Both the position numbers and the translations under genes were made by a program. 64,000 nt of DNA, taken from assembly GCA_024613925.1 (NCBI GenBank), contig GCA_024613925.1_4713.1; one strand, 5' to 3'. The notes beneath the pieces are model-generated. The model was not told the DNA's origin. It worked only from the letters and a program-made list of their open reading frames with translations, and searched no databases. The DNA comes from a phage. Below, one piece after another: positions 2,513 through 51,629 of the stretch; the stretch's first letter is position 1, and every line of letters starts with the position of its first letter.

Positions 2513-2537
2513 TCACCTAAGTAATATAGCCGTGAAA
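2513..2537 (-). promoter_or_regulatory. conserved promoter-like motif, copy A (minus reading TTTCACGGCTATATTACTTAGGTGA)
   Basis: one of four near-identical 25-nt copies, all in the same orientation and all upstream of minus-strand gene starts. Confidence 0.5.
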
Positions 2538-15062: not shown

Positions 15063-15090
15063 CATCACTAAGGTAATATAGTCGTGAAAG
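15063..15090 (-). promoter_or_regulatory. conserved promoter-like motif, copy B (minus reading TTTCACGACTATATTACCTTAGTGATGA)
   Basis: near-identical to copies A, C and D; partially duplicated (catcactagg 10 nt upstream); heads the 8-gene cassette. Confidence 0.55.
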
Positions 15091-37226: not shown

Positions 37227-39785
37227 TTACTGCTCTTCACGTTCCAGCAGATACTCGGAAGCGGTAATACCGTTTACCGTACGTACTGCTTTCAGACGAG
37301 TATCATCACTCAGAATCACGGTAACAGATTGCAGACCTTTTACTTTGGTTTCGAAGGTCTTGAACACCTGATCCAGCATACGAGCAATGCTTGGGTTGGT
37401 TGCAGCCGATGCGTGAGTGTAACCGCTCTGGTTCAGCTTCAGAATCTTGGCGTTGGTCGGTACGCGAACAACAACATGCGGACGCATCGCGAACACGCTG
37501 TGATTAAACCAGTAAGCATCGTTGCTATCTTCGTCGGTAACGATGTCCGGATTAACACGCATATCCTCGATAGCCGCATCCGCCAAACGACGTTCGATTT
37601 CGTCAGCATCCAGAGAGCCATCTTTCTCCAGTTCTGCACGATACTCGCTCATGGCAACCAGATGACGTTCACGATTCGCTGCGGATTTTTCGTGAGCTGC
37701 TTTCAGGTAGTCATGCATGTTGTACAGTTCAGCCATGGAAAGACGAATGTTCCACTGACCTTCGCCATCACGATTGCAGTAGAGACACTTCAGCATGTTG
37801 ACCCAGGTGTAGTAGCAATTGGAGAACTCATCTTCAATGAACTTCTGGTCCATTTTAAGATCGTGAATCAGCCAACCGGACAGTTCTCCGATATCATCAA
37901 CGAAGCTAGAGATGGTGGTTTCAGAGAAGTTCTTCGGTACGATACGTTTGATCAGCTTATTGACGTCTTTGGTCATGCTATCGTTCAGGAAATGCCAGAT
38001 ACGCAGAGGAATGACATCTCGATACTGTTGCATGATCTGACGATAAGCTTTGATATCGTCGCTACGACCTTTATCAATAGACAACGCATCCAGGAATTCA
38101 TGGATTGCATCCAGCTCTTTGTCGGTATAGGTTCCCAGATAGGAATTGACGGTGGCCAGGAATGCTAATGCGTCGTTTTGGTTAACGTCGGTGTTGGTCT
38201 GCTGAATGATCGCCACTGCGGCTTTAGTTTCAGCATCCTCAACGCTTGACGCTGCGATTGCATCGGTGACGGTAAACAGTTTCATTTCGCGCTGCTCACC
38301 GACAACGATTGGCTCACGCTGAACCGGCTTGTTAAGACTAACACGAACAACTTCTGCTTGCGCGATGCGATCCAGTTTTGCCATTTCCTGCTCTGCCATA
38401 CGACGAGCGGTTGGATCTGATTCAAGTTCGATGTATTCCACTTCTTCCTCCGTGAGGGATGTAATGTCAACAATGGTTTCATGAAGAATTCCGTTTTCGT
38501 CGATACGTGCCCGACGAGCGAAGTGCCTGAAGTCATACAACGTTGGCCAGCGACTATTAGGTGCGTAGTCTTTGGCTTTCAGACGCATCTGCATAAATTC
38601 TTCATGTTGAACAACACGACCGTAACGCTTAGCATCTTCGGTCGCATCAATTGGATTAACGGTCTTTGTTACCGTAGCGGAACGAGCCGTACGAATGGGT
38701 TCCGGTTTCACCTGCGCAGGTTCAGGTTGAACGGGTTTCTGCTGCCCAGCCTTAACATGCCATTCGGGCTCTTCGTACTGCTCAGCAAATTGCTCAGCCG
38801 CTGCAAAGATATCGTTGATACCACCAATATCTCCTTCAGGATTTGTCGAGTAAATCCGTGGTTGTGGTGCCTCGTAACGCGGCGCTGTAGCAGCAGGTGC
38901 ATCATCAACGATAGGATCGTCATCACCAACATCATACAAACGGTTGAACGCACAATCCTTCGAATCGATGTACGATGGCGCTTGTGGTTGAACAACCGTC
39001 GGCCGAGGTTGTGCGCCGTATCCTGGCGTTGTTGGAGCCATACCACGCATAACTGCCGGATTAGGCCGGTATTGCGGTTGTGGATAGGTTCCACCATACA
39101 TGGCATATGCAGGCTGTTGTGGTTGACCGTACCCGTTGCTAACCATTGCGCTTGCTTGCGGCCCACGATAAGTCATCCCCATCTGCATCACCTGCTGCTT
39201 CAAACCACGTGACTTCTGAGCGATTTGCGCTAGGCTTCCGCTTTTATTCAGCTGCGTGTACTTATTCGCGGCTTCCGGGTTAATGCGTGATAATTCAATC
39301 GCGCGATAATATTCCGGGTACTGATTAGGTTCAAAGAGCCACGTTACAAGATGATACAGCGCAACTGTGCTCACAGCAGCAGAGACGATCTGGTCGTCGG
39401 ACGCGTTCTGCGGCATCGGGTTGATGTAAGAGAACACGTTCCAACAACAGTCTTCAACAAGCGATTCCATCATCATGTCGTTATTGGTATAACGTGCGAC
39501 GAACTCGGTTTGTATTTTGTCTTGCTGAGCGAAGTCTTTCAGGACATTAAAGATAGCTTGACGGATTTTAACGATCGTCGCTTCTTGGGTGATGAAGTTA
39601 TAGTTCTGCTGATATGAGGGTTGTTGGTATTGTGGTGGTTGATAGGCGTTATTCGGGTATGCGCCGTACGGTGATTGCTGATACTGTTGCTGACGAACCT
39701 GTTCAGCCGCATAATTAACCGTGCTCGTATAAGGGTTTTCGCTATAGCCCATTTGTTGATACATGTTGTTACTACCGTTATACAT
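37227..39785 (-). CDS. large protein with Q/Y/P-rich low-complexity N-terminal and internal regions
   Basis: 852 aa; N-terminal about 65 aa and residues about 215..260 rich in Q, Y, P, N, G (YQQ, PQQP, QPQ repeats); long codon-aligned antisense ORFs suggest strong codon bias. Confidence 0.55.
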   Translation of the reverse strand: MYNGSNNMYQQMGYSENPYTSTVNYAAEQVRQQQYQQSPYGAYPNNAYQPPQYQQPSYQQNYNFITQEATIVKIRQAIFNVLKDFAQQDKIQTEFVARYTNNDMMMESLVEDCCWNVFSYINPMPQNASDDQIVSAAVSTVALYHLVTWLFEPNQYPEYYRAIELSRINPEAANKYTQLNKSGSLAQIAQKSRGLKQQVMQMGMTYRGPQASAMVSNGYGQPQQPAYAMYGGTYPQPQYRPNPAVMRGMAPTTPGYGAQPRPTVVQPQAPSYIDSKDCAFNRLYDVGDDDPIVDDAPAATAPRYEAPQPRIYSTNPEGDIGGINDIFAAAEQFAEQYEEPEWHVKAGQQKPVQPEPAQVKPEPIRTARSATVTKTVNPIDATEDAKRYGRVVQHEEFMQMRLKAKDYAPNSRWPTLYDFRHFARRARIDENGILHETIVDITSLTEEEVEYIELESDPTARRMAEQEMAKLDRIAQAEVVRVSLNKPVQREPIVVGEQREMKLFTVTDAIAASSVEDAETKAAVAIIQQTNTDVNQNDALAFLATVNSYLGTYTDKELDAIHEFLDALSIDKGRSDDIKAYRQIMQQYRDVIPLRIWHFLNDSMTKDVNKLIKRIVPKNFSETTISSFVDDIGELSGWLIHDLKMDQKFIEDEFSNCYYTWVNMLKCLYCNRDGEGQWNIRLSMAELYNMHDYLKAAHEKSAANRERHLVAMSEYRAELEKDGSLDADEIERRLADAAIEDMRVNPDIVTDEDSNDAYWFNHSVFAMRPHVVVRVPTNAKILKLNQSGYTHASAATNPSIARMLDQVFKTFETKVKGLQSVTVILSDDTRLKAVRTVNGITASEYLLEREEQ

Positions 39786-39819: not shown

Positions 39820-41619
39820 TCAATCGATTATGTCGTGATCGTTAATTTCTACAATTTCTTCATCGAATCGACCGACGTCTTTCTTCAAGCCTGCATTGGT
39901 TGCTGCAACGTCATTTGCAATTTGTGGGGTAATGATTAACCGACCGCGTTCGTCGATAGGTGCGTACATACTGAACTTCTGACGTCCGGTTGGTTCGGAG
40001 TGTGGAAGATTCAGATAGCTTGCACAGAACGGGATGGAACCACTAACCAAACGACTCTCGTCAGCCAATGCAGCACCGCCTGCGTTTTGGCTCTGGAGAA
40101 CAACATGCGTGCTCACTTTGAACAGCATGCAATCACCAGGTGACTGAATCGATGTTGCCACTTTTTCACGTTTGTCACGATTGCTCTGGATATTGAGAAT
40201 CGCTTCCGTTGCAACTTGATTTCGCAACGCCTTCTGTACATCGCGATTGGTCATCTCTTTACGGTTGTTCTGTCGTTTACCACGTTCCGTGGTTTTAAGA
40301 TGGAACCCCAGTTTAAAGATGCTCTTACGCACATCCTCCATGACATATTCCAACACCATCAATTCCTTACCGAACATCGTCGTGGTATCAACACGACTCA
40401 TTTCGATAGTGACATTATCAATCAGATACGCCATAAATTCGTAGAAGTCGTCGCAAGGAATATTTTCCTGTTTGAACTTCTTCTGTTGAATCTCGTCAAC
40501 GTAAAGATCGAGACTGTCGATGTGGTGGTTTACATCACGCAACAAACGCGCATCCGCATTGTTGTTATTAAAGATAATCAAACCGAGTAATGTACGCCAA
40601 TGGTCTGGCGCATTCGCGAACTCTTCAACCGGATAGTCTTCCGGAAAACGATCGTAATAACGGTCGATGAGATACAAGAATGCACCGACAAGGCCAAGAA
40701 CAATACGTTCCGTGCCTCCACGTCTTACAGCAATTTGAATATCAGGATGTTTGTAACGTACAGCGCTAGCGCTACGACTTTTACCGCTTTTGCTGATACT
40801 AAAGCCTTTAGGAATAACCCCCATGGTGCGATAGATTACCCATTGGTCACGCGGAAAATCACGTTCAGCAAGGTTCCGTCCGGTTACGGCTTCGACACCT
40901 GCAAAACGTCGGAAACACTCACCCACCCCGTACTTCGCAAAGAGATAGTGACCCAGTGTGGTTACGCTGGTGTGGTTGATGTTGTCGCCGTTCACTTTAC
41001 TTTGTTTGGTAAGATGATAGATTTGCGACCAGGGTAATGACAGGTAATGACGATAATCGATACCGGTCGGTGTATCATTGCTCAGGAACTGATACGGTGT
41101 ACGTTTAACCGTGATTTTGTCACGCGGAAGCATGATGAACGCCATGTCTTTCGTGTAACTGATTACAGGGTCAGCGAGCACCGCACTGAGAATGAAGTTC
41201 GCACCACGTAGACGCATTTTACCACCCTGACCTACTGCGGGCAATAGGAGAGGGTGTCGGATAATACAGTAGTCCTTTCCTGGTTCACGACGGTCACCTG
41301 ATTCCATCGCGCCGTACCAGCGGAATTCTAGCATCACCATAAACACATCGGAAGGCGCAAGGTCGAAGGTCAGCTTACCGCTATCCTTCCCTTTGGTTTT
41401 CTTTCCTCCGCTTAAGTAGTGGAACTGTTCGCGGGCCATACAGCGACGCAGGCCATGATACACCAGATCCTTAGGTAAACTATCTTTGCTGTTCCGCCAA
41501 AGACGATCAACATAGGACTCAACATCTTGCATCTTATCGACGACGATGTTGCGTGCTATCTTCTCGTTCATCTTCGGTGCAAGCTCAGCGACAGCTTTGC
41601 AGAATCTAGGATCCATCAC
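39820..41619 (-). CDS. hypothetical protein
   Basis: 599-aa ORF; no polymerase (NADFDGD-type) or other motif recognised. Confidence 0.5.
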   Translation of the reverse strand: MMDPRFCKAVAELAPKMNEKIARNIVVDKMQDVESYVDRLWRNSKDSLPKDLVYHGLRRCMAREQFHYLSGGKKTKGKDSGKLTFDLAPSDVFMVMLEFRWYGAMESGDRREPGKDYCIIRHPLLLPAVGQGGKMRLRGANFILSAVLADPVISYTKDMAFIMLPRDKITVKRTPYQFLSNDTPTGIDYRHYLSLPWSQIYHLTKQSKVNGDNINHTSVTTLGHYLFAKYGVGECFRRFAGVEAVTGRNLAERDFPRDQWVIYRTMGVIPKGFSISKSGKSRSASAVRYKHPDIQIAVRRGGTERIVLGLVGAFLYLIDRYYDRFPEDYPVEEFANAPDHWRTLLGLIIFNNNNADARLLRDVNHHIDSLDLYVDEIQQKKFKQENIPCDDFYEFMAYLIDNVTIEMSRVDTTTMFGKELMVLEYVMEDVRKSIFKLGFHLKTTERGKRQNNRKEMTNRDVQKALRNQVATEAILNIQSNRDKREKVATSIQSPGDCMLFKVSTHVVLQSQNAGGAALADESRLVSGSIPFCASYLNLPHSEPTGRQKFSMYAPIDERGRLIITPQIANDVAATNAGLKKDVGRFDEEIVEINDHDIID

Positions 41620-41655
41620 ACACTCCTTTCAGAAAGTTGCTTAAGCAGATTAAAG

Positions 41656-43098
41656 TTACTTTTTCGATGCCGCTTTCTCAAGAATCTTGAAAAAGGTCAT
41701 ACCTATACCGACAACGGCCGCAGTTATACTCGCAGCGGCTTTCCAAACATCGACGTTACGTTGACGTCGCGCTTCTTCCGCCTCACGTTGTCTTTTTGCC
41801 TCCTCATCACGTCGACGTATCTCAGCAGCAAACTCGTCGTGCTTACGTTTAGCTTCTTCGTCTCGACGACGAAGTTCAGCGACGAATTCTTCATGTTTGC
41901 GTTTAGCCTCGTCATCACGACGTTTTAAATCAGCTTGATAATCTTCGTGTATTTGTCTACGTAGATCATCTTGACGCTTCATTTCGGCTTGGTGTTGTTC
42001 CATCCTACGTTTTTGTTCGTCTTTAAGCTGATCGAGTTCGGCTTTATGTTGTTCATCGCGCAGCTTTGCGTCGGCGCGATGCGCCTCATGCATCTGTGCG
42101 ATAACTGCCTTGTGTTCATCCGCCATACGTCGCATTTCAGCCATCACCCCTTTAAGGGTTTCTTCTGATGCCTTACGTTCGTAGCTACGTTGGTCGAAAT
42201 CATTTTTGTAGGCTTCTTTTTGGATGGGGTCGCGCCAATGCAATGCCGATTCACGTGTCGGAAAAACATTGTACTTCCACATCTCTTTTTCCAAATCTTC
42301 GACCGGTACGAAGATGGAGTCATTATTCCCGAAGGTAACCAACATACCTGGCGCGCCTGCTCCATTCGTTGGTTTTATTTCGAACGCTTTCCCCAGCACG
42401 TTAACCCATAAGCTATACGGATTATGAAAGTCGGGTGGCGTCCAATGGATAGTGAGTTGCGTTCCGAGAATTCGGAAACCCTCTGTTTTTCCCGTCAAGC
42501 TCCGCGCGCACGTTGCGATGTAGGGGTGATCAATCCCTTTCGTAACGTGGTCTGCGCTTTTGTATTCTCCTTTAACTTTTACGATTGCCACGTTGATTTG
42601 CGCGACATAAGCGGGTTGATTAAAGTTCAACGTGTTGAGGTCAATTTGACATATTTCATCCAGCGTATCGTACCAGTCTTGCTGGTCTAATAGGCGCGGC
42701 ATTTTCTCGGTGTTAACAATACGACGGATATGCGGTTTCCTTATCGCGTAACCTGTGCCGTTTTTAACACGGAGTATATCCCGACGTCTACCCGCGTAGA
42801 CGAAGTTTCTGAATGCACCATTCGCATTAGATACGTCATGGCTGTCAACTATTACAGGACTACGAAATTTTGAACGTCGTACGATCCTGAATGTATTGCC
42901 GTCCTCAACCCTACCAGGAATGTACTGGAACATATTGTCGGAGGTGATCACCAACACGGTATGGCCAGATTCATTAATACATGCCCATCCTAATTCCAGG
43001 TCATATAACGGTTCAGCATAACCGTCAATGCGATAAGCGTGCGTACCATCCCACGGTTCGAACGCGGTATCACATATTGGCATGGAGGGCATCGTCAA
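41656..43098 (-). CDS. tail-anchored membrane protein with charged coiled-coil tandem repeats
   Basis: 480 aa; C-terminal hydrophobic helix AAASITAAVVGIGMTFFKIL; repeats RRDEEAKRKH(E/D)EF(V/A)AE(L/I)R; likely ATG start at about 43092 with GGAGG 6 nt upstream. Confidence 0.5.
   Translation of the reverse strand: MTMPSMPICDTAFEPWDGTHAYRIDGYAEPLYDLELGWACINESGHTVLVITSDNMFQYIPGRVEDGNTFRIVRRSKFRSPVIVDSHDVSNANGAFRNFVYAGRRRDILRVKNGTGYAIRKPHIRRIVNTEKMPRLLDQQDWYDTLDEICQIDLNTLNFNQPAYVAQINVAIVKVKGEYKSADHVTKGIDHPYIATCARSLTGKTEGFRILGTQLTIHWTPPDFHNPYSLWVNVLGKAFEIKPTNGAGAPGMLVTFGNNDSIFVPVEDLEKEMWKYNVFPTRESALHWRDPIQKEAYKNDFDQRSYERKASEETLKGVMAEMRRMADEHKAVIAQMHEAHRADAKLRDEQHKAELDQLKDEQKRRMEQHQAEMKRQDDLRRQIHEDYQADLKRRDDEAKRKHEEFVAELRRRDEEAKRKHDEFAAEIRRRDEEAKRQREAEEARRQRNVDVWKAAASITAAVVGIGMTFFKILEKAASKK
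41735..41945 (-). repeat. in-frame tandem DNA repeat (about 48 bp units) encoding the coiled-coil repeats
   Basis: recurring cgtttagc(t/c)tc.tc.tc.cgacg units read directly; boundaries approximate. Confidence 0.55.
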
Positions 43099-43240
43099 CC
43101 TCCATCTGATTGAAAACTATCACGCATAACGCATTTCCCTTTTCTTGTTCTTATCGAGCCGACAGCCGACGGTTTCAGCATCGTTCCTAGCGCGAGAACG
43201 ACCTTACGTGTTGTCTATGCCTTATTCATCGCAGGCGTCT

Positions 43241-43266
43241 GTCACCTAGGTAATGTAAGCGTCAAA
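43241..43266 (-). promoter_or_regulatory. conserved promoter-like motif, copy C (minus reading TTTGACGCTTACATTACCTAGGTGAC)
   Basis: near-identical to copies A, B and D; about 150 nt upstream of the start of 41656..43098 and just downstream of the terminator of the major structural gene. Confidence 0.5.
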
Positions 43267-43299
43267 TTTTTTCTATTCGCAACGTAAACGGCATAGAAA

Positions 43300-43329
43300 C
43301 CTCCCCCAACCCTTACGGGCTGAGGGAGG
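43300..43329 (-). terminator. intrinsic terminator: perfect 13-bp stem with GUAA tetraloop on the minus strand
   Basis: minus reading CCUCCCUCAGCCC-GUAA-GGGUUGGGGGAGG followed by UUUCUAUGCCGUUU; about 100 nt after the stop of 43429..45651. Confidence 0.75.
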
Positions 43330-43428
43330 CTGACTTATGTATCACGGTGCCGGATGAATGTCCGGTGCAATGAAACCATCCGCAACGTTGTCGTCAAGAA
43401 TATCGTCCAACGAAGCAGCTACGGTAGT

Positions 43429-45651
43429 TCAGTTAGTCTGAACAGGCAGCTTGATGTTTTCAGTGTAGACCTTACGCAGGTTCACAACGTTAATCAGACC
43501 CAGCAGCGGGCAGTTGTTAACGAAGCGGCAGCGCGGCTGAACCATGGTTTCTTTAGAAACCTGACCGTTACGGGTAACCTGAGCAACAGATACCAGTTCC
43601 GGTACGTACAGGAACATACCGAAGGTCAGCGGATCCGGAGAACCCTGGATACCACGAGACAGGGTCACGAAGATCTTATCACGCAGCAGGACGTTCGGGT
43701 TATCTACAACCACGAAGTTGAAGCTTACACCAACGGTACGGAAATCACCATCGGTCTGCAGGAACTGCGGGATGTAGTTGTCAGTTGCTACTACGCAACG
43801 CGGTTTCTCATCAGCGTTGGAAGACAGCAGCTGCAGAGCTGGCTGATAACCAGACTCGGAGTACATGCGATATGCCATCTCACGAATCACGTTCATGATC
43901 GCAGCGGACACTTCAGCACGACGTTCTGCAGTGGTGGTACCCTGAACAGATTTCTCCAGGTCCAGATTGATTTCTTCGAACCACGGACGGATCAGGTAAC
44001 GACCGAAACCTTCGATCTGGATGTCGCCGAACTGACGGAAGCGAGAGGTCGCAACCGCTTTCAGTGCGTCTTTGTAGCTGAACAGTTTCTCAACCATCAG
44101 GTTGTCGAAACGTGCGTTAGCAGCTTGGATCAGAACGTCCAGGTCGGCAGCGTTTTCTTCCCAATCCAGCGGACGAGGAATGGAGAACGGAGCCAGCAGG
44201 CCGATTGCGTAACGTTCTTGCTTCATGTTGAAGTCAAGGTGCTTACCGCGTTCACGACGGTTGCTGTTGTTACGACGGATACGCAGTTCGTAACCAACCA
44301 GTTTGAAGCTCAGGTCTTCAGCCAGTTGTTTGAACTCTTCGCTCTTACGCGGTTGTTCGATGTTGTCCTGATCAACCAGGCGATACAGTTCAGCGTTAGC
44401 GCCGTTAACACGCAGACCGGCTTTCTCTACGTTGGAAGAACCGTAAACTTCGATTGCCAGCTGAGCAGCGGATTTCGAATCGATGATGTCCTGCAGCGCT
44501 TCAGCTCGTGCACCTTTAACGTCAACGGTGTGCTCATCAACGAAGATGGAGTGGGTGTCGAACGCCAGGGTCATTTTGCGGAAGTCGCCTTCCAGGGATT
44601 TCTGGAAACCGTTGGTGATCAGACCAGATACGTCGAACGGTACGTAAGAGGTTTTGCTGTGCTTGGTAGATTTGATTTCCACCAGGATTTTGGTCAGCGT
44701 GATCTGGGCGTCCAGCGCATCGGTGTTGTCGCTGTAACCGTTAGCCAGGATGCTATCGTCTTCAGCAATACCGATCATGTCGATCAGTTTATCAACAGCC
44801 AGGTAAGACGTTTTATAAGTTACGCCTTTAATTTCGATGTTGCGCGGAGCAACGATAGCTTTGTCAACGAAGTACTGCGCGTTGGCATCGTCAGCACGAT
44901 AGATCGGATGCAGATCGGTCACGTCGTTGGACAGAACGTCGTTGTACATGAACGCATCCAGCAGCGGACGACGTACCCAATCAGCCGGAGTACCGTCAGC
45001 GTTACGACGCAGGTGGTTGAACACCAGCGGACGACGGAAAGATACGTCGTAACCGATCTGGTTCGGAGCCAGAACGATGGTGTTATACAGTTCGTTACCC
45101 ATGCGGCTCAGACGAGAAGCCTTCACGTTGAACACAACGGAGTACGGCATCATGTCACGCAGTTCTTTCTGGTCGTAAGACAGCTGAACCAGTTCTTCAG
45201 ATTCGCAACCGCAGGAATCAGCAGCCATCATGACGAAGTTAGAGCTGTCAACTTCACGGCCAGACGGAGTGGTGCTGATGTTCATGGAACGTGCTTGTTT
45301 AGCGTATTCCACCGGGTTACCATGAGCCAGCATGATCAGTGCTGCTGCACGAGCCTGCTGTGCGTTCATGGTGAACAGCTGTTCTTCAATACGCTGCTTC
45401 TCTTCCGGAGTGGTGGTTTCGAAGCCCAGCATGGACAGAACCGGTTCTTCTGCTTTACGGATGTCGCTGCTGAAGCTCTTAACATCCATTTCGTTAACCA
45501 GTTTGTCCATGGATTTGAAATCAACCTTAGAAGCAGATTCCATAGACAGGAAGGTGTTCTCCAGACCTTTGTCTGCTGGTTTGCTACCATTAGCGGTCAG
45601 GAACTGGCGAGTGGCCGCGACCTGTTGGCTAAGAAGGGTTTTATCATTCAT
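43429..45651 (-). CDS. major virion structural protein (major capsid protein-like; tail sheath not excluded)
   Basis: 740 aa, a size typical of giant-phage major capsid proteins; the whole gene lacks TTA, CTA and TCA codons (hence the 766-codon antisense ORF), indicating strong expression bias; flanked by a strong terminator. Confidence 0.45.
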   Translation of the reverse strand: MNDKTLLSQQVAATRQFLTANGSKPADKGLENTFLSMESASKVDFKSMDKLVNEMDVKSFSSDIRKAEEPVLSMLGFETTTPEEKQRIEEQLFTMNAQQARAAALIMLAHGNPVEYAKQARSMNISTTPSGREVDSSNFVMMAADSCGCESEELVQLSYDQKELRDMMPYSVVFNVKASRLSRMGNELYNTIVLAPNQIGYDVSFRRPLVFNHLRRNADGTPADWVRRPLLDAFMYNDVLSNDVTDLHPIYRADDANAQYFVDKAIVAPRNIEIKGVTYKTSYLAVDKLIDMIGIAEDDSILANGYSDNTDALDAQITLTKILVEIKSTKHSKTSYVPFDVSGLITNGFQKSLEGDFRKMTLAFDTHSIFVDEHTVDVKGARAEALQDIIDSKSAAQLAIEVYGSSNVEKAGLRVNGANAELYRLVDQDNIEQPRKSEEFKQLAEDLSFKLVGYELRIRRNNSNRRERGKHLDFNMKQERYAIGLLAPFSIPRPLDWEENAADLDVLIQAANARFDNLMVEKLFSYKDALKAVATSRFRQFGDIQIEGFGRYLIRPWFEEINLDLEKSVQGTTTAERRAEVSAAIMNVIREMAYRMYSESGYQPALQLLSSNADEKPRCVVATDNYIPQFLQTDGDFRTVGVSFNFVVVDNPNVLLRDKIFVTLSRGIQGSPDPLTFGMFLYVPELVSVAQVTRNGQVSKETMVQPRCRFVNNCPLLGLINVVNLRKVYTENIKLPVQTN

Positions 45652-51604: not shown

Positions 51605-51629
51605 TCACCTAGGTAATGTAGTCGTGAAA
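51605..51629 (-). promoter_or_regulatory. conserved promoter-like motif, copy D (minus reading TTTCACGACTACATTACCTAGGTGA)
   Basis: near-identical to copies A, B and C; about 64 nt upstream of the ATG at 51549. Confidence 0.5.

Follow-up and report, generated by a model that had tools for sequence, protein, structure and literature searches.

Goslar gp040, an early protein of nucleus-forming phages with a long charged stalk and a putative C-terminal membrane anchor

We analyzed a stretch of 64,000 nucleotides (nt) of phage DNA (NCBI GenBank assembly GCA_024613925.1, contig GCA_024613925.1_4713.1), hereafter called the window, and focused on the gene contained in the open reading frame (ORF) at 41656..43098 of its minus strand. 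This ORF is the ortholog of Goslar_00040 of Escherichia phage vB_EcoM_Goslar (hereafter Goslar), where the product, gp040, is annotated as 'hypothetical protein'. The region is 98.5% identical to Goslar in nucleotides and the protein, which we also call gp040, is 99.6% identical in amino acids (tblastn). A preliminary description of the window had given the gene the whole span of the ORF. The ORF is present, but the 480 residues that this implies are too many. TTG at 43098 is merely the outermost possible start, and the likely one is the ATG at 43090-43092, judging from its distance to a GGAGG motif and from the equivalent ATG annotated in Goslar. This Shine-Dalgarno sequence (43099..43103 (-), by direct reading) lies 6 nt 5' of the ATG. 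The coding sequence is then 41656..43092 (-), with a TAA stop at 41656-41658, and encodes 478 residues. On its 5' side lies gp041, the major capsid protein (43429..45651 (-); PF25620 PhiKZ_MCP, E 1e-216). On its 3' side, 39 nt past the stop and with no terminator in between, begins gp039, the beta subunit of the non-virion RNA polymerase (nvRNAP) and a member of the same early block (39820..41616 (-); PHROG 2943 'polymerase', E 7e-120; Goslar annotation), which is the ortholog of phiKZ gp123 and core gene cg36. As detailed below, gp040 is an uncharacterized, apparently essential, early protein specific to nucleus-forming phages, and not a curiosity of the structural module.

The protein belongs to the chimallivirus core-gene family cg35, together with phiKZ gp122, 201phi2-1 gp202, the PhiPA3 ortholog, and gp001 of Erwinia phage RAY. 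Profile, fold, and synteny comparisons all agree on this membership with the published core-gene table (Prichard et al. 2023, Table S3), in which cg35 comprises Goslar gp040, phiKZ gp122, and RAY gp001, and carries the asterisk of families unique to chimallin-encoding phages. The family is confined to phages that build a ChmA-walled nucleus. Pairwise BLAST between gp040 and phiKZ gp122 or gp121 was not significant. In line with the restricted distribution, tblastn with gp040 over the phage collection matched Goslar alone, and a HMMER profile search with the N-terminal domain against 1.84 billion representatives gave only three clusters. The comparison of the Goslar clade with the 17 other syntenic proteins (hhalign) gave a probability of 98.2% and an E of 3.4e-14 over 238 columns of the head. 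Three PHROGs of unknown function (7727, 7286, and 15024) span the family, and phrog_7727 matches gp040 (E 2.5e-5) as well as 14 of the 20 syntenic proteins. The matches of Foldseek to BFVD at ranks 1-32 (E 4e-11 to ~1e-2) are all uncharacterized proteins, which come exclusively from jumbo phages of the phiKZ type and from a small number of unclassified metagenomic myoviruses. A syntenic cg35 gene had already been found in many of these phages.

To test this assignment by gene order, the polymerase ortholog was located by tblastn in 218 phage records and 16 of these loci were fetched; the phiKZ locus was added by its coordinates and that of PhiPA3 through its tblastn match to phiKZ gp122. The 17 annotated phages fetched all have a hypothetical gene of 311-406 residues immediately 5' of the polymerase gene, and all keep the order cg35, nvRNAP beta, and a protein of 650-830 residues. 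Three metagenomic contigs also have cg35 followed by the polymerase gene. The one that is long enough has the full three-gene order, and the remaining two end within the RNA polymerase gene. Each of the three contigs has the capsid gene 5' of cg35, and so does every phage whose record extends far enough, with the exception of PCH45, where small genes precede cg35 and the adjacency to the polymerase gene is kept. In Erwinia phage Deimos-Minion the genome start splits the cg35 block; the order of cg35 and polymerase is nevertheless kept. The distant homologs of gp040 (26-30% identity) also retain the order of capsid gene, cg35, and polymerase.

In all 20 aligned cg35 proteins the head closes with [FY]x[ST]xxEA and is joined by a charged linker (42-169 residues) to a lysine and a hydrophobic C-terminus. 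This lysine (K451 in gp040) is nearly invariant across the family. The layout in three parts given by the preliminary description (head, charged repeats, and C-terminal hydrophobic helix) is thus kept in the homologs at 26-30% identity and, more loosely, across cg35. The Goslar clade stands out by having by far the longest stalk (169 residues vs 42-126 in the rest of the family), clear repeats of 18 residues, and one of the most transmembrane-like tails. In the Pseudomonas members, by contrast, the linker is short and the tail charged and amphipathic.

Four phages (phiKZ, PhiPA3, 201phi2-1, and Noxifer) have an extra ORF of 148-177 residues, gp121-like, between the capsid and cg35 genes (L005:2709-3161, L021:1999-2532, L018:1470-1988, and L015:1256-1702, respectively, in the coordinates of the fetched loci). 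It overlaps the start of cg35 by 30-45 nt in phiKZ, PhiPA3, and 201phi2-1, and ends 12 nt before it in Noxifer. Goslar and most other chimalliviruses are devoid of this ORF. We considered that phiKZ gp121 and gp122 might be one frameshifted gene matching the N-terminal domain of Goslar, and rejected the idea because four divergent phages have the extra ORF ahead of cg35, with an overlap into its start in three of them.

Expression data separate gp040 from its capsid neighbor. A promoter-like motif of 26 nt, TTTGACGCTTACATTACCTAGGTGA, identified by pattern searches with shuffle controls and by aligned contexts, lies at 43242..43267 (-), about 150 nt 5' of the start codon. There are four copies of it on the minus strand of the window (with the remaining cores at 2516-2528, 15073-15080, and 51608-51620), with the consensus TTT[CG]ACGNCTAYATTACYTAGGTGA. 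Its core, TAYATTAC, resembles the phiKZ early-promoter consensus. Three of the four copies lie directly 5' of the blocks gp004-001, gp021-014, and gp040-037, which agrees with the preliminary description having placed a promoter copy ahead of the gene. Expression of these three blocks is maintained or increased upon ChmA knock-down in Goslar (Armbruster et al., bioRxiv 10.1101/2023.09.20.558163, Supplementary Table 2): the log2 fold changes of gp037 to gp040 are between +0.7 and +1.1 (around +0.9 for gp040), and that of the capsid gene gp041 is around -4, i.e., a drop of about 16-fold. The behavior of the block in these data, together with the motif that it shares with the other early blocks, shows that gp040 heads an early, nucleus-independent operon composed of gp040, gp039 (nvRNAP beta), gp038, and gp037. 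The capsid gene is a late gene in a transcription unit of its own. Between it and the promoter motif there is a GC-rich hairpin of 15 bp (CCUCCCUCAGCCC GUAA GGGUUGGGGGAGG) followed by UUUCU (43298..43331 (-)). The fold of 43280-43345 (-) has an energy of -33.1 kcal/mol (z = -5.6), and none of 200 shuffles was as stable. A simple terminator scan did not list the hairpin at 43298..43331, which probably terminates the late capsid transcript. Hence, it is misleading to describe the gene as directly downstream of the major structural gene, as the two do not share their regulation: one is late, the other is early, and a hairpin lies between them.

Three further observations concern the motif copies and this operon. 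The fourth copy (51608-51628 (-)) is within the coding region of gp049 and is followed by a perfect hairpin of 8 bp (GATAACAG CGGTTA CTGTTATC). Neither gp048 nor gp049 is early by RNA-seq, and the candidate explanations for this copy are a short RNA, an attenuated start, or a relic. The motif copy at 2516-2528 (-) of the window (record ~2524-2536) seems to contain the annotated start codon of Goslar gp004 (record 2528), assuming that the offset of +8 between window and record, measured at gp040, also holds there. If so, the ATG about 20 nt downstream would be a likelier start. The ortholog of gp038 (37227-39785 (-), 852 residues, in the position of phiKZ gp124), in the same early operon as gp040, has two low-complexity stretches rich in Q, Y, and P, at residues ~1-65 and ~195-330.

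Our literature searches on Goslar gp40, tail-anchored proteins of jumbo phages, and transmembrane proteins of the early infection (EPI) vesicle gave no characterization of the protein. The functional data on cg35 come from orthologs that are 13-16% identical to gp040. Transposon sequencing of phiKZ yielded 0 reads in PHIKZ120 to PHIKZ124, vs 8616 in PHIKZ125 (PMC12676376, supplement). The zero insertions point to the ortholog, PHIKZ122, being essential in this phage. In an antisense screen both oligomers against PHIKZ122 scored '+', and silencing of either PHIKZ122 or PHIKZ124 had a strong effect on phage transcription at 30 min (PMC12571901). In PhiPA3, the ortholog was recovered in the pulldowns of ChmA-GFP and gp2/ChmB-GFP as well as by ChmA-miniTurboID, with no role proposed (PMC10643120); we infer from the PhiPA3 annotation that this protein is gp138. 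In PCH45, 18 of the 22 homologs of chimallin-specific core genes are essential and the named exceptions are gp76, gp198, gp205, and gp215. The cg35 gene does not appear to be one of these, going by its position alone (~37 kb). Finally, gp040 is absent from the accessible part of the mass-spectrometry table of Goslar virions and, as far as that part goes, is not a virion protein.

These traits recall those of ChmB, ChmC, PicA/Imp1, and Imp3: like gp040, these are early, non-virion proteins that matter for infection and occur only in nucleus-forming phages. The PhiPA3 ortholog co-purifies with the shell proteins ChmA and ChmB. Yet gp040 has no detected sequence or fold similarity to anything outside cg35, and no predicted membrane anchor is described for these proteins in the literature that we examined.

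The structure of gp040 was modeled with AlphaFold2 in two runs, using shallow alignments of 10 and 20 sequences, with a mean predicted local distance difference test (pLDDT) of 56 and 62. Word-indexed searches with the family alignments had yielded few extra sequences, probably since the charged repeats swamp the word filter. Both runs place a beta-rich part up to around residue 288 and the start of an uninterrupted helix at residue 289. We thus delimit a predicted globular N-terminal domain, or head, at residues 1-288 (42229..43092 (-)), based on these models of low to moderate confidence and on the alignments; the preliminary description had extended it to around 330 residues. The motifs conserved in the family are N40, H189-P190, W229, G249, and Y274-x-F-P-T-x-E-x-A283. 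We found no informative match of gp040 in Pfam and none by sequence in the PDB, and the Foldseek search of the PDB returned nothing below E 0.3. Hence, the fold search of this domain, which the preliminary description had proposed, reached the predicted structures of its own family and no solved fold. The head model is too uncertain for a fold to be read from it.

The head is followed by a long charged alpha-helix, the stalk, at residues 289-446 (41755..42228 (-)), which is supported by AlphaFold2 and by charge-pair statistics. The predicted helix covers residues 289-475 in the first model and 289-439 in the second, with a pLDDT of 72-87 in its stalk part. In the second model it is broken at residues 440-446 and a separate helix follows at 447-472. 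Residues 289-448 include 53% of D, E, K, or R, with a net charge of -1, and 17% of strong hydrophobics. Pairs of opposite charges at i/i+3 plus i/i+4 number 87 against 44.6 +/- 5.3 in 2000 shuffles, none of which was as high (z ~8). The best heptad frame has just 29% of strong hydrophobics at positions a/d, and the core pattern in 18 residues (0, 7, 11, 14) an occupancy of 43%. Given this excess of charge pairs and poor heptad core, the stalk looks like an ER/K-type single alpha-helix (SAH), or a weakly seamed straight helix, and not like a heptad coiled coil. There is a weak seam of L, A, and F with a spacing of 7-7-4 in the three best repeats, which could support a non-supercoiled helical bundle instead of a single helix. 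The stalk resembles the ER/K spacers of myosin VI, myosin X, and caldesmon in how densely acidic and basic residues pair at i/i+3 and i/i+4, in its low hydrophobic content, and in being predicted as a single uninterrupted helix, but its 53% of charged residues is below that of textbook SAH domains. If straight, a helix of 160 residues is predicted to be ~24 nm long.

Part of the stalk is repetitive. The self-identity of gp040 is 0.33 at a lag of 18 residues, 0.24 at 36, and around 0.1 at other lags. The three clearest repeats of 18 residues (54 nt) are LKRRDDEAKRKHEEFVAE, LRRRDEEAKRKHDEFAAE, and IRRRDEEAKRQREAEEAR, at residues 389-442 (41767..41928 (-)), and degenerate units reach back to around residue 335 (~42090). 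Units are identical in pairs at 9-14 of the 18 residues and at 29-36 of the 54 nt (54-67%). Tandem Repeats Finder (minimum score of 30) found no array in the gp040 repeats, and just one array of 19 nt elsewhere, when run on positions 41000-44000; a second repeat finder showed none at 41735-41945. In other words, this is a diverged protein repeat and not a DNA tandem repeat. These results confirm that a highly charged helical region precedes the hydrophobic C-terminus, and correct several of the details given in the preliminary description: the helix extends over some 150-160 residues (289 to ~440-448) and not about 110, its dominant period is of 18 residues and not that of a heptad, and the tandem repeats of about 48 bp reported in the DNA at 41735..41945 are not found.

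The large protein database has only a handful of gp040 homologs. The close ones have 460, 478, 489, and 507 residues, and two clusters at 26-30% identity have 413 and 406. The length differences between close homologs correspond to an 18-residue deletion, an 18-residue insertion, and an 11-residue insertion, all within the stalk, which bears out the suggestion of a variable length, here between relatives. At 3.6 residues per turn, 18 residues make five turns, and steps of 18 or 11 residues both nearly keep the helical phase. Such steps are predicted to change the reach of the stalk by ~2.7 or ~1.6 nm, respectively. Some of the close homologs were found in NCBI assemblies labeled as Salmonella enterica or E. 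coli O157, one of them on a contig of 244 kb and a second on another such contig. This suggests the presence of whole Goslar-like phage genomes inside assemblies of bacterial isolates, be it from a carrier state or from contamination.

The C-terminus of gp040 includes juxtamembrane residues and a hydrophobic helix predicted to be a membrane anchor (VDVWKAAASITAAVVGIGMTFFKIL, residues 447-471, 41680..41754 (-)), and its translation ends with the basic tail KILEKAASKK (residues 469-478, 41659..41688 (-), net charge +3). The stretch AAASITAAVVGIGMTFFKIL is the hydrophobicity maximum of the whole protein, with a Kyte-Doolittle score of 1.76 for the 19-mer at residues 453-471, which ends 7 residues before the terminus. 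The eight best-scoring 19-mers are all in the tail (residues 447-474). There is no other candidate transmembrane segment and no signal peptide, leaving a single hydrophobic segment, as in the preliminary description, within ~30 residues of the C-terminus. The uncharged core, AAASITAAVVGIGMTFF, has 17 residues (452-468, 41689-41739) and shows a stripe of small residues (A454-A458-G462-T466). The 60 C-terminal residues (RDEEAKRQRE..RQR.VD.WKA and the hydrophobic helix) are the best-conserved part between homologs with 26% identity. Like tail-anchored proteins, gp040 lacks a signal peptide, carries its only hydrophobic helix at the very C-terminus, and has a large N-terminal part that would be cytoplasmic. 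Examples of such proteins include ElaB/YqjD/YgaM in E. coli, SNARE proteins in eukaryotes, and the tail-anchored proteins of the mitochondrial outer membrane, whose anchors gp040 recalls by its moderate hydrophobicity and basic C-terminal tail. It has however no sequence relationship to them, with no Pfam or NCBIfam-type match to DUF883/ElaB. It also differs from tail-anchored proteins in that its putative anchor is short and weakly hydrophobic, and in that the helix is insufficiently hydrophobic in part of cg35.

This last point can be seen across the family. Tails resembling transmembrane segments, with 13-17 uncharged residues and unweighted Hessa sums of +1.5 to +5, are found in the Goslar-like, Ralstonia, and Burkholderia proteins, in Klebsiella Eowyn, Serratia PCH45, Erwinia Ea277G, and Noxifer, and most of these have a lysine-rich tail after the hydrophobic run. 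Relatives whose tail is not of this type have sums of +6 to +11. On this comparison of tails, the C-terminal hydrophobic or amphipathic helix is ancestral, and a true transmembrane anchor is not universal in cg35.

The genome of nucleus-forming phages is housed first in a lipid vesicle and later in a protein shell. In the reviews that we consulted, no mechanism is given for the transfer of the genome from vesicle to shell, and no membrane protein of phage origin is named as taking part in it. Our favored reading, tentative and somewhat short of probable, is that gp040 acts early as a tail-anchored protein that tethers a lipid membrane (probably the EPI vesicle, or else the inner membrane) to the nascent ChmA shell. 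The protein would be made in the cytoplasm early in infection and inserted post-translationally into a lipid membrane by its C-terminal helix. Its head would be held on the cytoplasmic side at a fixed distance of ~24 nm from the membrane, where it would contact the assembling ChmA/ChmB nuclear shell or its cargo. It would thus help to link the two compartments, lipid and protein, as the genome is handed over. Identity, family, synteny, early expression, sequence architecture, and the length variation by units are established by the analysis, while membrane insertion and what the head binds are inferred. The reading fits the specificity of the family for nucleus-forming phages, the expression before the nucleus is formed, the proximity of the PhiPA3 ortholog to the shell, and the change in transcription by 30 min upon silencing in phiKZ.

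A broader and less likely version of the tether reading concerns the whole family. Here, cg35 would be the missing physical link between the successive genome compartments: it would decorate the EPI vesicle from the cytoplasm, and its head, on a phase-locked ER/K stalk (~24 nm in Goslar), would capture the ChmA/ChmB lattice or nucleate it, after which the shell would form around the vesicle, or dock to it, for genome hand-over. Lineages with amphipathic tails would act by peripheral membrane binding.

Several observations weigh against a membrane-anchored tether. The uncharged run is of just 17 residues and rich in Ala, Gly, Ser, and Thr. On the Hessa scale, the best 19-mer has an unweighted sum of +2.8 kcal/mol, which is borderline, and the 17-mer one of around +1.4 (summed by hand). 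Both flanks of the helix are basic (RRQRNVDVWK on the N-terminal side and KILEKAASKK, net +3, on the other). These charges are not those compatible with translocation that are expected of a tail anchor: the basic KILEKAASKK would have to cross the bilayer, in conflict with the positive-inside rule, so that an interfacial or unusual topology is possible. Together, the basic flanks and the modest hydrophobicity argue against a textbook transmembrane topology. Moreover, the tails of phiKZ, PhiPA3, phiHQ, 201phi2-1, and the Vibrio and Aeromonas phages carry Asp, Glu, and Lys, look amphipathic, and have sums of +9 to +11. As judged from their residues, those of the most thoroughly studied relatives (phiKZ, PhiPA3, and 201phi2-1) and of the Vibrio and Aeromonas phages cannot form a classical transmembrane helix, and therefore a function common to the family cannot depend on full membrane insertion. 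Hence, the tail-anchored topology of the preliminary description agrees with the position of the segment and is at odds with its flanking charges, its 17-residue uncharged run, and the amphipathic tails of relatives. Literature searches gave no localization or fractionation data for any cg35 member. The model of the N-terminal domain is of low confidence (pLDDT of 35-79) and allows no assignment of a partner or a fold. In phiKZ, gp123, the nvRNAP subunit, begins 10 nt past gp122, and the transposon and silencing phenotypes may be partly polar on it. Finally, the ChmB pulldown of PhiPA3 is also rich in capsid proteins (PMC10643120), so that the co-purification of cg35 could be indirect.

Some of these observations are better accounted for if gp040 is a soluble factor associated with the shell or the polymerase, whose C-terminal helix docks it to protein instead of lipid. 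We regard this as doubtful, though it is the most serious of the alternatives. The helix would insert into a shell protein (ChmA, ChmB, or another one) or homo-oligomerize through its small-xxx-small stripe, and the head would act in the assembly or import of nvRNAP or in the handling of transcripts at the shell. The charged or amphipathic tails of the Pseudomonas, Vibrio, and Aeromonas members suit a protein interface better than a bilayer. The adjacency to nvRNAP beta is invariant in the 17 annotated phages and three metagenomic contigs, even in PCH45 where no capsid gene is adjacent, and gp040 is co-expressed early with gp039. Silencing of PHIKZ122 and of PHIKZ124 both strongly changed phage transcription at 30 min, and the recovery of the PhiPA3 ortholog in the ChmA/ChmB pulldowns and by proximity labeling fits docking to the shell too. 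However, at least 10 lineages have the classic look of an anchor, with an uncharged run of 13-17 residues, flanked by lysines, lying 0-10 residues before the end of the protein. It is also difficult to see why a simple docking peptide would need a rigid charged spacer of 50-170 residues, and the pulldown of gp62-GFP gave all five nvRNAP subunits, among which the cg35 protein is not named.

It is improbable that the anchored protein is instead a membrane platform for procapsid assembly, nucleating or holding procapsids at the inner membrane, in the way membrane-associated T4 gp40 is said to act for the T4 portal. Reviews report partly assembled capsids on the inner membrane and name no anchor for them, cg35 adjoins the capsid gene in most chimalliviruses, and the ChmB pulldown containing the PhiPA3 ortholog is dominated by capsid and other virion proteins. 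Yet the late capsid gene and gp040, whose expression is early and independent of ChmA, have a strong hairpin and a separate promoter between them. The family is restricted to chimallin-encoding phages, even though related jumbo phages share the capsid module. We downgraded the procapsid idea on account of this timing in the RNA-seq data and of this chimallin-specific distribution. In addition, the invariant neighbor is nvRNAP beta and not the capsid gene, which small genes replace 5' of cg35 in PCH45, and silencing in phiKZ altered transcription by 30 min. A role in lysis or exclusion (as a spanin, a holin regulator, or a superinfection-exclusion factor), superficially suggested by a hydrophobic helix and an elongated charged helix as in i-spanins, is most implausible and was rejected on topology (a C-terminal helix and a large domain that would be cytoplasmic, the reverse of an i-spanin), on timing (an early core gene of nucleus-forming phages), and on the lack of transposon insertions in phiKZ, besides which the neighbors are capsid and polymerase genes with no partner lipoprotein gene and the PCH45 study assigns lysis to other genes.

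We found no published account of the predicted C-terminal anchor and rigid spacer of cg35. If the anchor is real, gp040 would be a concrete candidate for the coupling of membrane to shell in nucleus-forming phages, and a new example of a tail-anchored tether from a bacterial virus. If it is not, the cg35 protein would still be an apparently essential, shell-proximal factor encoded beside the phage RNA polymerase gene.

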